A stretch of DNA of 64,000 nucleotides from positions 170 through 64,169 of the forward strand of contig JBQCGU010000072.1 of the NCBI GenBank assembly GCA_051955355.1. Reading direction: 5' to 3'. The notes beneath the pieces were generated by a model that was given only the letters and a program-made list of their open reading frames with translations, searched no databases and was not told the DNA's origin. Positions 14,837 through 53,998 of this stretch are shown here, in pieces. This DNA is from Solirubrobacteraceae bacterium (GTDB taxonomy: Bacteria > Actinomycetota > Thermoleophilia > Solirubrobacterales > Solirubrobacteraceae). Numbering within the stretch: the first letter of the stretch is position 1; each line of letters begins with the position of its first letter. The translations under genes were made by a program, and so were the position numbers.

Positions 14837-15520
14837 TCAGTCAGCTGCAGCCGGGAACGGGTCGCGCAGCGTGGAGAGCACGTGGTCGGCGCCCGCCTCG
14901 CGCAACTGCTCGACGGTGTAGCGGCCACTTGCCACCGCCACCGAAACGACGCCCACGCCCTCGGCTGCCTCGACGTCAAGGGGCGTGTCGCCCACCACGG
15001 CGATCTTGTCCGGGTCGATGCTCCGGCGGAGCCGCCGCTCGCCGCGCTCGATCGCGATGCGCGTAAGCTCGACGCGGTCCTCCGAGTCAGAGCCGTAGCC
15101 GCCGAGCAGGAAGAAGCGATTCAGCTGACCCCTGCCGAGCTTGGCGTGAGCCGCCGGCTCCAGCCCGCCGCTCGTGATCCCGAGCAGGATGCCTTCACGC
15201 GTGAGCCGTGTCAGCAGCTCAGGCACGCCGTCCAGAACCGTGTAGCCCTCGGAAGCCGCCACGAAGTCGGGCACCACCGCCATGTAGCCGGACATCAGCT
15301 GCGCCAGCTCCCCATCCTGGGGATCGTGCTGCATGACTTCTCCGAAGACATGCCGAGCGATCACCGGGTCGGTCATCCCCGACTTGGAGTACTTGCCGAT
15401 GTCGACACCCGGGTTGGTGAAGAAGCGCTCGAACGCCCATTCCCAGGCGCGCGCACCCGCTCCCCCAGTGTCGACGAGCGTCCCGTCGATGTCGAACAGC
15501 ACCAGCTCGAACGGGGCCAT
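14837..15520 (-). CDS. HAD family hydrolase
   Basis: FDIDGTLVDT motif I, VVGDTPLD motif IV. Confidence 0.9.
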   Translation of the reverse strand: MAPFELVLFDIDGTLVDTGGAGARAWEWAFERFFTNPGVDIGKYSKSGMTDPVIARHVFGEVMQHDPQDGELAQLMSGYMAVVPDFVAASEGYTVLDGVPELLTRLTREGILLGITSGGLEPAAHAKLGRGQLNRFFLLGGYGSDSEDRVELTRIAIERGERRLRRSIDPDKIAVVGDTPLDVEAAEGVGVVSVAVASGRYTVEQLREAGADHVLSTLRDPFPAAAD

Positions 15521-47449: not shown

Positions 47450-48379
47450 ATGCGGGCAAAGCCCACACGAGGCATACGCCGTTTCGGAGCTTTCTGTGCA
47501 ATCTTCGCGGTCTTCAGCTTCCCGTGTTGTACGCAAGCTGTGGCCGATTTGCCAGCGTGCGAAGCCAAGAACCCAACCATAGATAGTGTGAGAGCCGAGG
47601 GAGTGACGATGACGGGCGTAGACCTCGAAGCCCAGATCAATCCCCAAGGCAACGAAACCACCTACGAGTTCTTGAGCGTCTGGCGAGAGATGAAACCCAG
47701 GGAACGAGGAGAACCACTCGCCGCCGACTCACCGGCACAAGAAGGCCATATTGGCGCGGGTTATAGCGATGTGACGGTCAGCGCGTTCCTGTCTGGCCTG
47801 CAACCAGGCTACACCTACTGGTTTGAAGTCGTGGCGACAAGCCTCGGCAACAGCACGAGATCTACGGTGGCGGTGCCCTACTTCGACCCGAATTGGTACG
47901 ACAGCGGATACGCGGAAGGACCGCCCTACGTGCCCACCCCAGACCGCGCGGGATGCGCCAGCGAATCTGGAAACCTTGCAGCAGCAGAAACGGTGCGTAA
48001 ACAGCGATAATTATAAGCTGAAGACGCCACAGCTAACCACGCAGAAGAAGCGGCCCTGAAGCGATCTACCGAAAAACACCGAGCGGGAACTCCTCCAGCC
48101 AGCTGCAAAGTACCGGGCGTGCTGGGCAGGACGCTGAGCGTCGCTCGACGTGCGATTGTTCGTGCACACTGTCGGCTGGGACGACCGCGATGCCCAGCGC
48201 GCTACCGCGGCGCACTTATCATCACCGGACAGACCCCCCACCAAGGCAGCATGCTCCGCAATGGAGCGTTAGTGAAGCTCGTGCTCGGACCCGTCCACAA
48301 GCGCCACCATCACAGCCCGCGGGCCAAGCGCAGCCAAGCACTGACCGGGTCGGAGCGGAGCAACCGCTACTTCTCGTAG
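47450..48379 (+). pseudogene. Secreted FN3-like plus PASTA-like protein interrupted by two in-frame TAA codons
   Basis: FN3-like INPQGNETTYEF...GLQPGYTYWFEVVA; TAA at 48008 and 48014; same frame continues to CKVPGVLGRTL..ARRAIVRAHCRLG...QTP..G...V.LVLG. Confidence 0.7.
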
Positions 48380-48627
48380 TGATAGCGAGCCTGGAGCACC
48401 ACCAGATCCTCGCCGAGCACCTGGTAAACAAGCCGGTGCTCCTCATTGATGCGCCGTGACCAGGCGCCAGCGATCCCGTACTTGAGCGCCTCCGGCTTGC
48501 CGATCCCGTTCGTTGGATCACGCAGCGCATCATCGAGTAGTCGATTGATGCGCCTGACGAGCGCACGGTCAGCCCGCTGCCAGTAGGTGTAATCCTCCCA
48601 GCCCTGCGGGGTGAAGACGAGCCTCAC
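48367..48627 (-). CDS. yoeB: Txe/YoeB family toxin
   Basis: WEDYTYWQ, GIGKPEALKY, WSRRINEEHRLVY, RYHY. Confidence 0.95.
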   Translation of the reverse strand: MRLVFTPQGWEDYTYWQRADRALVRRINRLLDDALRDPTNGIGKPEALKYGIAGAWSRRINEEHRLVYQVLGEDLVVLQARYHYEK

Positions 48628-48872
48628 GCCCGGTCGAGCTGACGCTCGGCCGTGTCGCCGCGCTCCGCCGCCTCTGCGGCATCAAGCAGACGGCGCGCAT
48701 TCGCTGGCGAGCGGAACAGATAGGCGGTCTCCTGCCAGGCTGCGTAATCGTCCGCCGACATCAACACGGCGTTGCCGCGCTTGGATGTGATCTCGATTGG
48801 CGCACGATCGTCGTTGACCTGCTCGATCAACGGGAAGAGAGCCCGTCGCGCCTCGCTAGCTGTGATCGCCAC
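48624..48872 (-). CDS. yefM: Phd/YefM family antitoxin
   Basis: ITASEARRALFPLI, AVLMSADDY..WQET.YL..SPANA.RL. Confidence 0.95.
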   Translation of the reverse strand: MAITASEARRALFPLIEQVNDDRAPIEITSKRGNAVLMSADDYAAWQETAYLFRSPANARRLLDAAEAAERGDTAERQLDRA

Positions 48873-48888
48873 CGTCGTGTCCTTTCAC

Positions 48889-48912
48889 CTGGTACCAGAT
48901 ATCGTACCAGAT
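48889..48912. promoter_or_regulatory. Candidate YefM operator (paired GTAC cores, 12-bp spacing)
   Basis: CTGGTACCAG palindrome 48889-48898; GGTACC 48891 and CGTACC 48903; upstream of yefM RBS. Confidence 0.6.
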
Positions 48913-49258
48913 GGCTGGTCCAGTTGTCTGCTCGCCGAAAGACGACGACGAGATGGCCGATTCGCGATCGTCCCCCCTCCGCGCAGTAAAACCAGCATCG
49001 AGGGTGGCTCTAGACACCCACGCGATGGAGGACGGCGAAGGCCCTTCGCGCTTTGTCTCATGCAGTCGGAGGCCGACCCACCTATCGACAGCATAACAGT
49101 GGCGTCCATCTGTCGAAACAGTATCGACAACCGTCAGAATCGTTCGATCATCGCCATTCTCGCCTTGCGTCGACGCTTCCCCAGGTGCCACCTGTTGGGC
49201 TGGTACAAGAGCAGATTAGCGCTGACACGATGTAAGTTTTGTGTGCTAGAGTCTTGGC

Positions 49259-49699
49259 ATGCCTTCCGCGTCAAGCCAGAAGGCCCGTAAGGGCGACCCC
49301 TTCAGCGTTCGCTTCACGCTGCCGACCGACCGCGTGGTCGCGGAGGAGGCGAGACGTACTCACCGCTCCAAGAGCGCCGTGGTCGAGTTGCTCGCGGAGG
49401 AGGCTGTGCGCACACGGCGGTTTGCGGGAATCGGATTCCGCGGCGAGGACGCAGCGCGCCGTCCGTGGGTGGTCGGCTCCGGTCTGGACGTTTGGGAGAT
49501 CGTCCAAATGGTTGAGGACTTCGGTTCGCTCGAGCGACTCCTGGCAGAGACGCAGCTCACCGAGCGCCAGGTGCGCCTCGCGCTCGCCTATCGCGAAAGC
49601 TATCCCGACGAGGTAGCCGAGGCGATCAGGCAAAACCGCCGCACCGTCGAGGAGTGGCACGAGCTATATCCGTTCGTCGAGTTCTCCACCGCGACATAA
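49259..49699 (+). CDS. RHH plus DUF433-type antitoxin (VapB45-like)
   Basis: N-terminal SVRF..RSKSAVV; RPWVVGSGLDVWEIV; QVRLALAY..YPDE. Confidence 0.8.
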   Translation: MPSASSQKARKGDPFSVRFTLPTDRVVAEEARRTHRSKSAVVELLAEEAVRTRRFAGIGFRGEDAARRPWVVGSGLDVWEIVQMVEDFGSLERLLAETQLTERQVRLALAYRESYPDEVAEAIRQNRRTVEEWHELYPFVEFSTAT

Positions 49700-49705
49700 C
49701 CACGC

Positions 49706-50056
49706 TTGCGCCTGCTGCTCGACGCAAATCTTTCGCCAAGGGGCGTTGCTATCCCCCTGCGCGAGCGAGGCCATGACATCCTTGCGCTCGCCGAGGACTC
49801 TGTCTACGAGGGACTGCCGGATCCTCAGGTGCTCGAACTGGCCGCTGACGAGCAGCGCATTCTCATAACCCGCAACAGCCGCGACTTCGCGCCGCTTGCG
49901 CGCCAGTGGGCCGAAGCCCAAAGATCGCACGCCGGCCTGGTCCTCATATGGACCCTCGACCACAGCCAGTTCTCCCAGATAGTCACCGGTGTAGAACGCC
50001 AACTCGCACAGCGTCCGACGCAGGAGCAGTGGCAAGACATAACCGTTGCGTTCTGA
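49706..50056 (+). CDS. DUF5615/Mut7-like PIN toxin (VapC45-like)
   Basis: MRLLLDANLS, PDPQVL, RILITRNSRDF. Confidence 0.85.
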   Translation: MRLLLDANLSPRGVAIPLRERGHDILALAEDSVYEGLPDPQVLELAADEQRILITRNSRDFAPLARQWAEAQRSHAGLVLIWTLDHSQFSQIVTGVERQLAQRPTQEQWQDITVAF

Positions 50057-50195
50057 TGCCGTACAAGCGTGAAGCAGCTATGACATATTTGCCCTCTACT
50101 TGACCCGCCGGCGTCGACACACCCCACCAAGACTCGTCACTCGACGGTGGCTGATAGCCCTGCGAATCGTGCACGGAAGCCGCTTCCCTGACGAA

Positions 50196-50696
50196 TCAGC
50201 TGCTCAAGACGACACCGAACCGCTCATCGAATGCTGTGCGCTCCTCGACGGCGACGGCCTGTGCAAAACGGCTCGCCGTGACGGTGAAGCGATCGAGGAA
50301 GCCAACGCTTCCGAGCAGCACCAGGCTGTAGCTGTGCCAGCCCTGCACGAAGCCGACCTGCGCCTCCCATTCCTGGTACTCGTGTAGCGAGCCGTCGCGT
50401 GGGTGCAGGCGCAGCGATACGGTCTTGTAGCGCGCCATCAGCGCGTGGCCGCCGACCGCGTGCGGCGTTTCGCCCTCGTTGTCTGCCAGGTCGATCCCGA
50501 GCTGTTCGGCCAGCAGGTCGCTTGCGAGTACCGCATCGGCGCCAGTGTCGACCAGTCCTTCCAGCAGCGTCGTGTTCTGCTCGCCGCAGACGAGCGACAC
50601 GTACACGAACGGCCGGAACACGGGCTCGCCAAGCCGTGTGGACTGGGGGTCCTCCCGGTAGGGATAGAGCCAGGGAAGCGGCTGCGGCTCAGCCAA
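50196..50696 (-). CDS. Retropepsin-like aspartyl protease
   Basis: GLVDTGADAVL and LLGSVGFL; TTG start overlaps upstream stop by 8 nt. Confidence 0.8.
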   Translation of the reverse strand: MAEPQPLPWLYPYREDPQSTRLGEPVFRPFVYVSLVCGEQNTTLLEGLVDTGADAVLASDLLAEQLGIDLADNEGETPHAVGGHALMARYKTVSLRLHPRDGSLHEYQEWEAQVGFVQGWHSYSLVLLGSVGFLDRFTVTASRFAQAVAVEERTAFDERFGVVLSS

Positions 50697-50880
50697 GGCC
50701 GACGTGGACCGGCTCATCGGCGTACGGGACGCGACCGCGCACGGCGATGTGGTCACGGCCCTTGGCCTTTTCGAGCACCACGCGCGGGTCCTTGTCGGCG
50801 ATGACGATCTTGCCGGTGCGCGCGTCGATGGCGACGTACTTGCCCTCGTAGCCCTTGAAGTTTGTGCGAATCGGCTGCAT
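50689..50880 (-). CDS. DUF5678-like small protein
   Basis: 63 aa YEGKYVAID..GKIVIADKD...LEKA; TACACT and GAGGA upstream. Confidence 0.7.
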   Translation of the reverse strand: MQPIRTNFKGYEGKYVAIDARTGKIVIADKDPRVVLEKAKGRDHIAVRGRVPYADEPVHVGLG

Positions 50881-51123
50881 GGAAGCGATCTTCCTCAGTG
50901 TACCGGGGCCTGCGGTCGGCATCTTGGGTACTAAAAGCCTCGGAGTTCGGTGGCTTTGGGCCTGGACTTGACCTTCGGCGCGGGTCGAGCTAGACGTTCG
51001 GGTCGTCCAAGCAAACAGCGGCCCGGCGACGCGGTTCAGGCGCCGCCGAGCCTTGCGACACCAAAGGGGTGGCCTTCGGTGCCGCGCGACATACGGTATC
51101 CCCGCGAAGCTTGGGGGAAAGCT

Positions 51124-51405
51124 GTCCTCCAGGCCCAAGAGGCCGAGCTGAGCCTGCAAACACCCAACCCCGCCGCACAGCCGCCCACGCCCGCGGAACT
51201 CGCCACCGTCGCCCAGGAGATCGAGCGCATCATCGCCGACGCCGAGCCACAACAAGCCAAGGCGCTCCTGCGCCTGCTCATCGCAGAACTGCGCGTCAAC
51301 GGCAAGGCCGACATCCAGCCCACCTACCGCATCATCGCCCCCGACCACGCCCTCACGGCCGGGGTTTGCGCAACGTCTGGAAAAGTGGAGACGGCGGGCG
51401 CGTAA
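51124..51405 (+). pseudogene. C-terminal remnant of a large serine recombinase
   Basis: KALLRLLIAELRV...PTYRI...VCATSGKVETAG ending in the antisense tmRNA 3' sequence; no catalytic domain upstream; left edge approximate. Confidence 0.6.
51384..51398. repeat. att-like direct repeat, tmRNA 3'-end copy
   Basis: AGTGGAGACGGCGGG identical to 53636-53650. Confidence 0.85.
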
Positions 51406-51477
51406 GAGGCGCAATCGTCAATGCTCGCCTCAAATCCACGTGGTTGTGCTCCCCTGGTGCGACCCGCGCTAGCGACG

Positions 51478-51702
51478 CTAGAGCTGCTGACGCAGCTCCT
51501 CGCGACTGATCCCCGCGTCCCGCATGATGCCGTTGAGCGTTCCGCGCTTGAGTTCGCGGTGCAGCGGCACGACAAGCAGCGCCGAGTGATCCGGATGTTT
51601 GAGGCTGACATGGCTGCCGCGCTGACGCACCGACTCCCAGCCCAGCTTGTGAAGGACGTTGACGAGTTGCGAGCCGGATACGACCGGCAGCCGCTCGCTC
51701 AC
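51478..51702 (-). CDS. hicA: HicA family toxin
   Basis: GWESVRQRGSHVSLKH, VVPLHRELKRGTLNGI. Confidence 0.92.
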   Translation of the reverse strand: MSERLPVVSGSQLVNVLHKLGWESVRQRGSHVSLKHPDHSALLVVPLHRELKRGTLNGIMRDAGISREELRQQL

Positions 51703-51923
51703 GCGGGCACAGGCAGCCTGCGCCGCACGACGTTCCCGCCGAGCGACCTGCCTTCCTCACGCAAGCTCTCCACGTAGAGGCCCAGGGCCTCACGGGCGTT
51801 GTCCGTGGCTTCCTCGATGTCCTCGCCCTGCGTGTGCAGGCCGGGAAGGTCGGGGGCGTACACGTGGTACCCACCCTCGTCTTGAGGCTCGAACACGAAC
51901 TCGATCTCGCGCTGGTCGGCCAT
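51699..51923 (-). CDS. hicB: Short HicB family antitoxin
   Basis: EGGYHVYAPDLPGLHTQGEDIEEA..NAREAL; no C-terminal DNA-binding domain. Confidence 0.9.
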   Translation of the reverse strand: MADQREIEFVFEPQDEGGYHVYAPDLPGLHTQGEDIEEATDNAREALGLYVESLREEGRSLGGNVVRRRLPVPA

Positions 51924-52011
51924 ACGCTCAGGATACCGCCGCGCGGCAACAAGACCTCTCGACAACAAGCGACCACCTCCTCGTTCCGGCTCTCAGGAGA
52001 CGCCACGCCGG

Positions 52012-52929
52012 TCATGCGCTGCCCCTCTCCGTCTCTGGCGCGTCAGTCACGGGCGCGAGCCGACGGACGTTGCCCGCATAGGCCCGCTTGAGCCGCTCCC
52101 GCGCGCTCGCCTCGGACGGATGACCGTAAGTGGACATCACCAACGCACCGCCATCGGTATGCCCCAACTGCACCGCAACGTCCGCATGCGACACGCCCAG
52201 TTCGAGCAAATGCGTAGCGCAGAAGTGCCGCAGCTCGTAGAAGTCCATCTCCGGACGACCGAAGGCCGTGCGAACCGGACGCCAGTAATAGAGGTGGCTG
52301 CCCTTCGAGAAGCGACGGCCGCGCGGAGTCGTGAACAGCCACAGCACGTCTACGCGCGCGGGCACGTCCGCCAACGCTTCTCGGGCCGGTGGCGGCAGGA
52401 TCACCGTCCGTACACGACCGTTCTTGGGCAGCTTGACCTGCCCGGTGCCGTCAAGGTTCTGGCGAATCGTTACCTCGTCCCGGCTCACGTCCCACCGTTC
52501 GAGCGCATACAGCTCGCCGGGCCGCAAACCCACATAGGCAGCGAACAGGACCATCGCCCTGAATGTCAAGCCAAACGCACCGAGGCAGTCGAGCGCACAG
52601 TCCGCCAGTTGGTGAAGCTCAGCCTCGCTCAACGCGATCAAATCCTTTCGACCGCGCGGCTGCTCTAGGCGCAGATTCGAGAACGGGTTCGGCCCAGGAT
52701 GCAAGCCGTCGTTGATCGCATCAGTGAACATCGCTCGTACCACGCGGACGTTCGACTGCGGCTGGCTCAAGGCCCGGCGGCGCGCGGTCGGCTTGTCCAG
52801 ACCTCGCAACGGCACACGCGCGAAGTCGTCACGGAATCGCCGAATCGCATAGCGATTCGTCCTCTGTGACGCCGCAGTTGGCCTCGGATAGTCGCTGAGC
52901 CACCGCTGCGCGAAGTCCCCGCAGGTCTC
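52012..52929 (-). pseudogene. Tyrosine recombinase/integrase, N-terminus missing
   Basis: GLRPGE, KLPKNG, YELRH, QLGH, TYGH; recognisable sequence begins abruptly at ETCGDFAQRW, upstream lies the rep frame. Confidence 0.8.
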
Positions 52930-52944
52930 AAATCCACGAACAAA

Positions 52945-53450
52945 GCAGTCCCATACGCGAGCACCGGATGGACGTGCAAGACACGGCGCGCCTGTATCTC
53001 CCACACCCGCGCAACCAACCACACCGACCCCTTCCCCACTCGCCTGACCGTCTCCTGATACGCGCGCCGGTGAAGCCGCCTCCACCGATCCGCAGCCGAG
53101 CGATTCCACTCGCGCGCCTCGACACCGCGCACACGGCAGCCAAGCTGGCCCGAATGCTCGTGCTCCCCGAGTCCGGCACAGACGTGCTCATCCCACGGCA
53201 GCGCGTCCGCGCCGGGAGCGGTGACGGCGCTCAACAAGATCTTGCCCTCAAGCACCTCCAGGTTGCGAAACAGCTTCTGGCGCTGGTCGCCCGCCCACAC
53301 CGGGCCATACTCGGGACACCGCCGCGACCGACACACGTCCCCACGGCCATACAGCGGCCGCCCGCAACTGCGGCAGCGCCGCGTCAAGTGCCCGCCGAGC
53401 AGCGATCCGGTGCGGCGTCGAGCCATCATCGGTCGATCAGCCGCGCGCAC
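52945..53450 (-). pseudogene. Truncated RepSA-like HUH rolling-circle replication initiator
   Basis: CRSC...CRSRRCP, VTAPG, WN..A..RW.R, WEIQARRVLHVH (HVH at 52968-52976); breaks off before catalytic Tyr; GGGAG RBS before GTG 53450. Confidence 0.65.
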
Positions 53451-53477
53451 AGCCCTCTCCCTCGCCTTTGGGTGGCA

Positions 53478-53517
53478 TGCGACCCAAATCGACCCGACGT
53501 GCGACCGCTCTGCGACC
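53478..53517. repeat. TGCGACC direct repeats at ~11-bp spacing (arm-site or iteron candidates)
   Basis: TGCGACC at 53478, 53500, 53511, variant TCGACC at 53489; another TGCGACCC at 51458 near the other att. Confidence 0.55.
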
Positions 53518-53634
53518 GCAACCTCTGTGCGCCCCCGCAAATCGGCGGTTTTTCGTTCGCCGCCCTTCGCGCCGCTGCGCAAGGCTTTCCCCTGCACTGG
53601 AGCGCTTTTCGCGCCCCTCCGCTTCAAACCGAAC

Positions 53635-53998
53635 TAGTGGAGACGGCGGGAATCGAACCCGCGTCCGCGATTGCGTGAAGATGGCTTCTACGAGCGTAGC
53701 CGGCGCTCTGATCTCATCCCCCGCTAGCCTCGCCGGCCGGGTTGCGGGGGACCAGTCTTCTCAGCTTTCCCCGGATCGGCGAAGACGGACCTCACCGGGT
53801 GAGCCTGCTATCTGATCCCGAGGATCCCCGCCGCAGGCGAGCGGGGCTCGAGACCTCATGCCTGGTTTCTAATCAGGCAGCGAGGGCGTACTCGTGAGAG
53901 TCCGCACTTATTGTTTTCCCGGGAGTTTTACGAGGCCACCCGGGACCTCGACTCGCAACCATCCACACGAACCAACCGCGTCGAAGCCTGTCGTCCCC
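53635..53998 (-). ncRNA. ssrA: tmRNA, tag (A)DSHEYALAA
   Basis: 5' GGGGACG pairs with 3' CGUCUCC-A; T arm GGGUUCGAUUCCC; tag frame 53905-53873; CCA not fully encoded. Confidence 0.97.

Follow-up and report, generated by a model that had tools for sequence, protein, structure and literature searches.

The window analysed here is the whole of a 64,000-nucleotide stretch of contig JBQCGU010000072.1 (assembly GCA_051955355.1) from a bacterium of the Solirubrobacteraceae, and the subject of this work is a pair of small overlapping genes on its minus strand. The upstream gene (50689..50880, ATG start) encodes a DUF5678-like protein of 63 residues, hereafter the small protein, whose open reading frame (ORF) translates as MQPIRTNFKGYEGKYVAIDARTGKIVIADKDPRVVLEKAKGRDHIAVRGRVPYADEPVHVGLG, beginning with MQPIRTNFKGYEGKY and closing with ...VHVGLG. 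The downstream gene (50196..50696, TTG start) is an ORF for a single-domain, retropepsin-like aspartic protease of 166 residues. Genes of the window were called with a codon-usage model. The two genes share eight nucleotides (nt), TTGGCTGA (50689..50696, minus strand), the TTG of the protease being nested within the last codons and the TGA stop of the small gene; in the junction sequence CTTGGCTGA, this TTG lies 8 nt before the end of the TGA. An earlier note, made from the sequence alone, had described a 63-residue gene overlapping a protease by 8 nt and had proposed a protease-based toxin-antitoxin (TA) or anti-phage module. The coordinates, strand and junction of the pair are confirmed here, and the proposed function is weighed below.

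The genes share the same 8 nt in 65 of 81 related loci. In seven loci the TTG is mutated to TGG or TCG, and each of these has an in-frame ATG four codons upstream (MSxW...). In many loci the TTG is the sole in-frame start of the protease, or a stop codon stands two codons upstream of it, and in distant relatives the small gene and the protease gene lie 8-35 nt apart. Given these start-codon patterns and the separation of the genes in distant relatives, the junction is read as translational coupling of two separate proteins rather than as a Gag-Pro-type fusion. A frameshift fusion or retroelement remnant of the Gag-Pro kind would draw on the retroviral-type fold of the protease and on its frame, which is shifted by +1 from that of the small ORF and, in the window, stays open upstream over as many as 20 codons. 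However, no reverse transcriptase or retroviral-type integrase recurs nearby and no viral relatives were found, so that such an origin is highly improbable. The frameshift fusion itself was rejected on the stops just upstream of the TTG, the loci where TTG is the only start, the compensating ATG and the distant relatives with separated genes.

The protease presents LVDTGA at residues 48-53, with the catalytic motif D50-T-G-A53 (GAC ACT GGC GCC) read from the sequence at 50538..50549 of the minus strand. D, T and G of this motif are invariant in 22 of 22 close homologues, and D[ST]G is kept in 25 of 28 distant members and in 52 of 53 metagenome members. The hydrophobic-hydrophobic-Gly motif L127-L-G129 is read at 50310..50318 (minus strand; family consensus LLGQxGFFD); it is conserved, G129 being invariant in the family alignments, as is the GG pair at residues 82-83, which takes the position of the flap. 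The core is preceded by an N-terminal extension of about 22 residues (PWLYPY..ED) and followed by a C-terminal helix (FDERFG). These features recur in the family profile, which comprises an extension of about 22 residues with PW[LVI][YF]PY..ED, then LRP, LVD[TS]G[ASC][DE], a GIGG or GG flap, LLGQxGFFDxFTVT and a C-terminal FDxRFG helix. No signal peptide or membrane segment was seen in the protease, whose N-terminus MAEPQPLPWLYPYREDPQ... has no hydrophobic stretch on inspection, i.e., as judged without a predictor.

In terms of sequence models, the window protease matches Pfam Asp_protease_2 with an E-value of 9.6e-5 and 23.5 bits (cut-off 24.3), gag-asp_proteas with 21.2 bits (cut-off 28.2) and TIGR02281 with a score of 16.4 (cut-off 57.95), while several homologues carry a precomputed match to PF13650. 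The AlphaFold2 model, obtained with an alignment of 22 homologues, has a predicted local distance difference test (pLDDT) score of 87.8 and a predicted template modelling score of 0.82. The best Foldseek match of this model is the Rickettsia protease APRc (5c9f; E-value 4.8e-5, template modelling score 0.53-0.64), followed by the proteases of feline immunodeficiency virus (FIV) and Rous sarcoma virus (RSV) and by the RVP domain of Ddi1; the top matches are all retropepsins, with E-values from 5e-5 to 1e-3. When the family profile of 28 divergent members was searched against all PDB sequences, only retropepsins were retrieved, and profile positions 29-63 align with residues 7-35 of human immunodeficiency virus 1 (HIV-1) protease, catalytic triad included. 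By motif and by modelled fold, the protein is thus classed as a retropepsin-type (clan AA) protease, slightly under the curated sequence cut-offs, and by analogy with that class two copies of it, each contributing one catalytic Asp, would be expected to form the active homodimer. The earlier reading of a single-domain aspartyl protease with DTGA and LLG and without a signal peptide is borne out, its motifs being present in the sequence and its model matching retropepsins.

The catalytic Asp is replaced in three representatives of 50%-identity clusters, by Ala in P0197 and P0198 and by Gly in P0229. These replacements would suit a pseudo-protease scaffold, in which the retropepsin fold is kept to bind and not to catalyse. 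Such a scaffold is nonetheless very unlikely as an account of the family, given how widely D[TS]G is retained in close, distant and metagenome members and given that the window protein itself has DTGA, the GG pair of the flap and LLG.

The small protein was compared with DUF5678 (PF18929), which it matches with an E-value of 7e-4 and 19.8 bits against a gathering cut-off of 23.2, over positions 1-34 of the 49 of the profile. Among relatives, the small proteins of loci L086, L089 and L097 score 22.0, 21.6 and 17.4, that of L095 gives no match, and that of the distant member L084 scores 30.5, above the cut-off. Since L084 clears the cut-off, the DUF5678-like label given to the protein earlier is right at family level, with the window protein itself below the cut-off. 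The AlphaFold2 model of the small protein (pLDDT 80.5) has strands at residues 15-19, 25-29 and 45-50 and a helix at 32-39, which form a beta-beta-alpha-beta unit over residues 15-50. The last residues have low pLDDT, and the model suggests that the acidic C-terminal tail is flexible or unstructured. No significant match to this fold was found in PDB (best E-value 1.0) or in BFVD (best E-value 0.09), nor any related PDB sequence, and no ubiquitin-like or antitoxin chain is among the Foldseek matches listed.

In terms of distribution, protein searches yielded 305 protease clusters and 73 small-protein clusters at an identity of at least 65%, the organism being from the Solirubrobacteraceae wherever one is named. 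A scan of one genome per species yielded 80 loci, nearly all from Solirubrobacterales, and a profile search of 1.84 billion representative proteins yielded only 644 relatives at E <= 1e-3, a number which indicates a distinct family of modest size. Sources named for related members include Acidimicrobiales besides Solirubrobacterales. Conservation of the pair had been set beforehand as a test of the earlier proposal, and among 82 related loci all but one, which is cut by a contig end, have the small gene immediately before the protease (81 of 82). In addition, protease relatives at 30-45% identity have a gene of 64-87 codons immediately upstream in every context examined. The median ratio of nonsynonymous to synonymous substitution rates is 0.17 for the small gene and 0.20 for the protease gene, i.e., both genes are under purifying selection, and divergence in one gene tracks that in the other (correlation of pairwise distances, r = 0.82). 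The pair is an old and obligate unit that is inherited together, beyond a chance neighbourhood.

The 80 genome loci represent 52 unrelated contexts, and eight genomes have two or three copies of the pair, which behaves as a mobile cassette in soil Actinomycetota (Solirubrobacterales and Acidimicrobiales). The four genes nearest the pair were surveyed with Pfam in 52 representative contexts, considering the top 25 families per set. Frequent families include HTH_3 (10), transposases (5), PIN (4), Fic (4), TacA (2), DUF6290 (2), NikA (2), BrxC/D (2), ResIII (2), TOTE primase and Xre-type helix-turn-helix (HTH) proteins, and Z1-domain genes adjoin some loci. Tandem integrases stand beside the pair in other contexts. 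Genes more than 6 kb from the pair are mainly housekeeping genes, plus serine recombinases. Most neighbours of the pair are not defence genes, and no conserved third partner, RimK-like or other, was seen among the neighbours surveyed.

With respect to decay, both genes are intact in 68 of the 80 loci, the protease is broken beside an intact small gene in nine, both are broken in three, and no locus has an intact protease with a broken small gene. Hence, none of the 68 intact proteases lacks an intact small gene. Two of the nine protease-only breaks are independent in-frame deletions of about 35 residues over the flap region (L071, 10001-10384; L081, 10001-10390), and both loci retain DTGA, the C-terminal half of the protease and an intact small gene.

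The most distinctive feature of the small protein is its end, the C-terminal octapeptide EPVHVGLG-COOH (codons 56-63 of the small gene; 50692..50715, minus strand), for which the family consensus is EPELVGLG. Small partners found through their proteases are only about 25-45% identical, yet they have in common a near-invariant ending, EPxxVGLG-COOH: the protein of the window ends in DEPVHVGLG*, those of L083, L084 and L097 in GEAELVGLG*, EEPEMVGLG* and TESELVGLG*, respectively, and those of L086, L089 and L095 in SEPELVGLG* or DEPELVGLG*. Since the tail is kept where 8-35 nt separate the genes, its conservation does not follow from the overlap with the protease frame.

A 27-nt degenerate DNA pattern for EPELVG[LF]G plus the stop codon was then scanned against 241 million metagenome records. 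Of 76 matches evaluated, 70 are homologues of the small protein (a specificity of about 92%) and six are chance matches. Among the 70 homologues, 62 are followed by the protease family, two have no downstream room, three are intact orphans and three are remnants. In this tail-anchored set, about 66 intact small genes have sufficient sequence behind them, and the protease comes next in 62 of these; the intact small genes without it are L109, L162 and L172. The EPxxVGLG tail is almost diagnostic of the family in metagenomes, and the 27-nt pattern provides a simple handle for finding further members.

Its near-invariance makes the tail a concrete structural reason to see the small protein as an inhibitor or a substrate of the protease. 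If it were a dedicated substrate, the protease would trim the tail, for instance at L|V in EPEL|VGLG, so that the small protein, then the true effector or regulator, would be activated, released or destabilised. An invariant C-terminal octapeptide suits a recognition site as well as it suits an inhibitor, retropepsins are generally known to cut between hydrophobic residues in extended sites of 7-8 residues, and the pairing is obligate, as a dedicated substrate would have it. The small domain, however, has no recognisable effector or DNA-binding fold, and the orphan intact small genes, along with the small genes that stand beside decayed proteases, fit a protective partner better than a precursor in need of processing. 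We regard the substrate role as rather unlikely.

The reading we favour, with a probability of roughly 0.4, is that the pair joins a cytoplasmic retropepsin to a small, tailed inhibitor or pseudosubstrate and forms a selfish, TA-like cassette. The cleft of a retropepsin takes about eight residues in extended form (P4-P4'). Given that the eight-residue tail matches this length, a model with the tail in the cleft is the most economical. In it, the small protein would dock on the dimeric protease through its globular domain, and the octapeptide would lie in the substrate groove under the flaps, where it would act as a competitive inhibitor or as a slowly cleaved pseudosubstrate and keep the protease silent. 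Loss of the small protein through degradation, titration or halted synthesis would free the protease to cut proteins of the cell or of an invader. The genetic behaviour of the pair would then be that of a type II TA-like, possibly abortive-infection-like, selfish module. It is the tail together with the cassette-like genetics (52 contexts, multicopy genomes, TA and mobile-element neighbours and, in the window, three TA pairs in a tmRNA island) that makes this the preferred reading. What the analysis shows is the gene structure with its overlap, the retropepsin fold and motifs, the obligate pairing, the mobility, the purifying selection and the conserved tail; binding of the two proteins, the placing of the tail in the cleft, inhibition and toxicity are inferred.

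Two known inhibitors have features in common with this model. Regarding retroviral proteases (HIV-1, FIV, RSV and human T-lymphotropic virus 1), the likeness includes DTGA, a Gly-rich flap, the hydrophobic-hydrophobic-Gly motif and an acidic peptide at the end of the sequence encoded immediately before the protease. The HIV transframe (p6*) peptide, which precedes the viral protease, is known to inhibit it. Unlike in retroviruses, the two genes of this bacterial pair yield distinct proteins, the upstream frame closing with a stop codon and the protease beginning at a start codon of its own, and Gag, reverse transcriptase and a retroviral integrase are all missing. In yeast, the small, cytoplasmic and partly disordered protein IA3 is generally known to fill the cleft of the aspartic protease proteinase A, as would the tail in the proposed model, and the corresponding structure (1dp5) is among the fold matches of the window protease through its protease chain. 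IA3 differs in that its target is a pepsin-type enzyme of two lobes, which it inhibits by way of an induced helix; the genes of IA3 and of this enzyme are unlinked, and the sequence of IA3 does not resemble that of the small protein.

As in type II TA systems (MazE-MazF, Phd-Doc, YefM/YoeB, HicAB), the pair has two small, adjacent, co-directional and overlapping genes with the putative protector first, is mobile and multicopy and occurs in islands; the flexible, neutralising C-terminal tail proposed here would be a further likeness, by analogy with what is generally known of antitoxins. On the other hand, none of the known type II toxins met in our searches is a retropepsin, and the small protein differs from such antitoxins in its lack of a recognisable DNA-binding domain. 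An association between the loss of the catalytic Asp and the loss of the tail is suggestive only: in the Ala-for-Asp lineage (P0198 at L201-L202, P0197 at L203), the partner ends in ...DEPTRIY* or has no canonical tail visible, and the C-terminus of the protease has diverged as well.

Several results weigh against the TA-like interpretation. The D-to-G singleton (P0229, at L204) retains the canonical tail DEPLRVGLG* and the 8-nt overlap; given this, only one evolutionary event stands behind the correlation between Asp and tail. Most type II antitoxins have a DNA-binding domain, and none was recognised in the small protein: Pfam returned no HTH, ribbon-helix-helix, AbrB or Phd domain, and fold and sequence searches were blank. 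The decay asymmetry is weak, since, reckoned per nucleotide, about 3.4 small-only breaks would be expected against 0 observed, and since Nanopore assemblies make up many of the genomes, some of the frameshifts counted may be errors. No relatives were found in collections of plasmids, phages and viral contigs, searched by tblastn of the protease (plasmids and phages) and with a protease pattern (viral contigs). Enrichment of TA and defence genes nearby is a qualitative judgement from lists of the top 25 families. Finally, some contexts are metabolic, e.g., with glycosyltransferases, or lie beside gyrA, and one context is common to 23 genomes, hence the pair is in that case stably and vertically inherited like an ordinary gene pair. 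In addition to these points, tblastn of the small partner of L084 against plasmids returned nothing.

The conserved chromosomal context of the 23 genomes, the metabolic neighbourhoods and the purifying selection on both genes would also be accounted for by a non-toxic housekeeping or regulatory protease with a small adaptor, cofactor or chaperone, comparable to the ubiquitin-like domain of Ddi1 or to RimB with RimK, which is found in islands only since small pairs move easily. The characterised cytoplasmic bacterial retropepsin, RimB, is indeed a regulator and not a toxin (PMC12239564). Nevertheless, 52 contexts, multicopy genomes, TA and mobile-element neighbours and occasional decay are atypical of housekeeping genes, and the survey of neighbours gave neither a RimK-like gene nor another recurring partner. 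A regulatory role is, in our view, rather unlikely.

Few bacterial retropepsins have been characterised (reviewed in PMC12239564), and a 2025 paper likewise states that only a few have been studied. Those met in this work are APRc, RimB and RloA, none of which is described with a dedicated protein partner. APRc (RC1339 of Rickettsia conorii), the best structural match, has the same single-lobe fold and D-[TS]-G motif and is presumed to be a homodimer; it is membrane-embedded (PMC4140852), whereas the window protease, about 16% identical to it, has no signal or membrane segment, carries the extension of about 22 residues with PWLYPY and has a dedicated small partner gene. RimB/RimK and RloA of Pseudomonas are likewise bacterial clan AA peptidase systems, and RimB, a cytoplasmic enzyme, shortens C-terminal tails of poly-Glu, which are acidic (PMC12239564), the tail of the partner here being acidic and C-terminal too. 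They differ in that RloA is secreted, in that the window protease returned only Asp_protease_2 and gag-asp_proteas from Pfam, and in that no ATP-grasp gene (RimK or RloC) neighbours the pair. Membership of the RimB/RloA group was ruled out, given the lack of a Pfam match to the RimB family and of an ATP-grasp gene among the neighbours. Ddi1, whose RVP domain is among the structural matches, also combines a small alpha/beta module with a retropepsin; it is a single eukaryotic polypeptide, and the small protein has no significant match to a ubiquitin-like fold.

Concerning defence, the pair could be a dedicated anti-phage abortive infection system, in which the small protein would sense a phage cue (a phage protease or inhibitor, or host shut-off) and free the protease to kill or arrest the cell. 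Some loci adjoin the bacteriophage exclusion (BREX) genes BrxC/D, ResIII, TOTE primase or Z1-domain genes, and 6 of the 28 distant protease members have weak hidden Markov model similarity to the retropepsin-like B genes of the PADLOC candidate systems PDC-M52 and PDC-M08 (best E-value 5e-4, for PDC-M52B; 0.003 for PDC-M08B), which are likewise multi-gene cassettes proposed from genomic context (guilt-by-embedding). These scores are far from membership and likely reflect the shared fold alone, the small partner has no match to any PADLOC model (PADLOC-DB v2), and the genes around the pair are for the most part unrelated to defence. No match for the pair was found in PHROGs. A dedicated anti-phage role hence appears quite unlikely. 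Elsewhere, one paper places small retropepsin proteins close to type III CRISPR loci of Sulfolobales.

The earlier proposal is partly supported. The parts that stand are the obligate unit, its mobility and a likely physical link through the tail, along with the presence of PIN, TacA, Fic, HTH, transposase, BrxC, ResIII and TOTE neighbours. Toxicity and defence belong to its conjectural side: the PADLOC matches are weak, PHROGs gave none, the context common to 23 genomes speaks of long vertical inheritance beside mobility, and the neighbourhood enrichment is qualitative.

More speculatively, and with some doubt on our part, the pair may be the founding example of a TA or abortive-infection class that has a cytoplasmic retropepsin as its effector. 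The enzyme would be restrained by an octapeptide pseudosubstrate threaded into its cleft, much as retroviral proteases are by an upstream-encoded peptide, and released by loss of the small protein or by its displacement by a phage factor. Our literature search found no description of DUF5678, of a retropepsin as a TA toxin or defence effector, or of this pairing. If the model is right, aspartic proteolysis would be a new effector chemistry for TA and defence biology, the small protein would be a natural, genetically encoded peptide-tail inhibitor of a retropepsin, and part of the DUF5678 family would gain a function. Should the model fail, the pair would remain a clearly delimited gene family, widespread in soil Actinomycetota and so far unannotated.

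In the window, the pair lies in a genomic island, whose features from YoeB/YefM to the transfer-messenger RNA (tmRNA) gene (48367..53998) are the context of the pair and not parts of the module. According to Pfam, a YoeB/YefM pair (48367-48872, minus strand), a DUF433 plus DUF5615 (PIN-like) pair (49259-50056, plus strand) and a HicA/HicB pair (51478-51968, minus strand) flank the pair, in agreement with the TA systems that had been recognised around it. They are followed by a tyrosine integrase (52012-53109, minus strand), which adjoins the 3' end of the tmRNA (ssrA; 53637-53998, minus strand; tag ADSHEYALAA). The guanine-plus-cytosine (GC) content is 0.60-0.66 from about 43.6 to 53 kb, compared with 0.68-0.69 outside, and this stretch of about 9-10 kb holds at least three TA pairs plus the protease module. 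The drop in GC and the surroundings indicate that the pair sits in an island beside ssrA. A second copy of the tmRNA 3' end (att) was not found, so that the island is left with a far border that is undefined or has decayed.

The earlier note had also given the small gene its own promoter, and here the evidence falls short. A sigma-70 consensus scan returned no promoter upstream of the small gene. A tentative -10 element, TACACT (50897-50902), and a Shine-Dalgarno-like GAGGAAG (50890-50896) are present upstream of it (50890..50904, minus strand), and the motif GGTACACTG...GGAG is kept upstream of close relatives in unrelated contexts. Between hicAB and the pair, the terminator scan gave a terminator-like hairpin of 13 pairs with a T-rich tail (51020..51052, minus strand); given that this hairpin separates the pair from hicAB, the pair would be its own transcription unit. 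Both the conserved motif and the hairpin are indirect indications. Palindromes upstream of the small gene are short and non-conserved only. Downstream, a short palindrome, GGAAGCCGCTTCC (50175..50187, minus strand), is read 8 nt past the protease stop and is possibly a weak terminator stem; no T run follows it, and it is absent from the terminator-scan output.

Contigs from RNA-labelled soil and compost runs (X21, X22, X26 and X30), 95-99% identical to window positions 50573-50957, span both genes and the junction. They are weak evidence for transcription of close relatives in soil, since DNA carry-over is possible. Between hicA and the pair, a 108-residue ORF (51079-51405, plus strand) has good coding statistics and no Pfam match. 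The 160 nt upstream of the small gene, which lie inside this ORF, are common to locus L003, whose downstream flank differs.

Several genomes have additional copies at most 10 kb away from the main pair, namely orphan small-gene copies, partial protease copies and a second complete pair (L013, about 15003-15176; L073, 7910-8095; L012, 14661-14840; L065, 7110-7319; L030, 16743-17423). In one sub-clade (L004-L010 and L018), a conserved segment of about 110 nt, located about 110 nt downstream of the protease stop, travels with the module across contexts. It holds a convergent ORF of 25 codons, MGDTGHSANRADGAEFEGWALDVGA, is not present in the window and could be a third small gene, a 3' untranslated region or a recombination site.

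In the context common to 23 genomes (L041, 10492-10985, minus strand), the pair has a Peptidase_M29/formiminotransferase block on one side and, on the other, two short genes that overlap each other and run on the opposite strand. These encode 81 and 84 residues, have no Pfam match and may be another TA-like pair. Lastly, three tandem tyrosine-recombinase genes lie upstream of the distant module of L089 (577-3772). The otherwise identical loci L090 and L091 are without them, which suggests a recent insertion.

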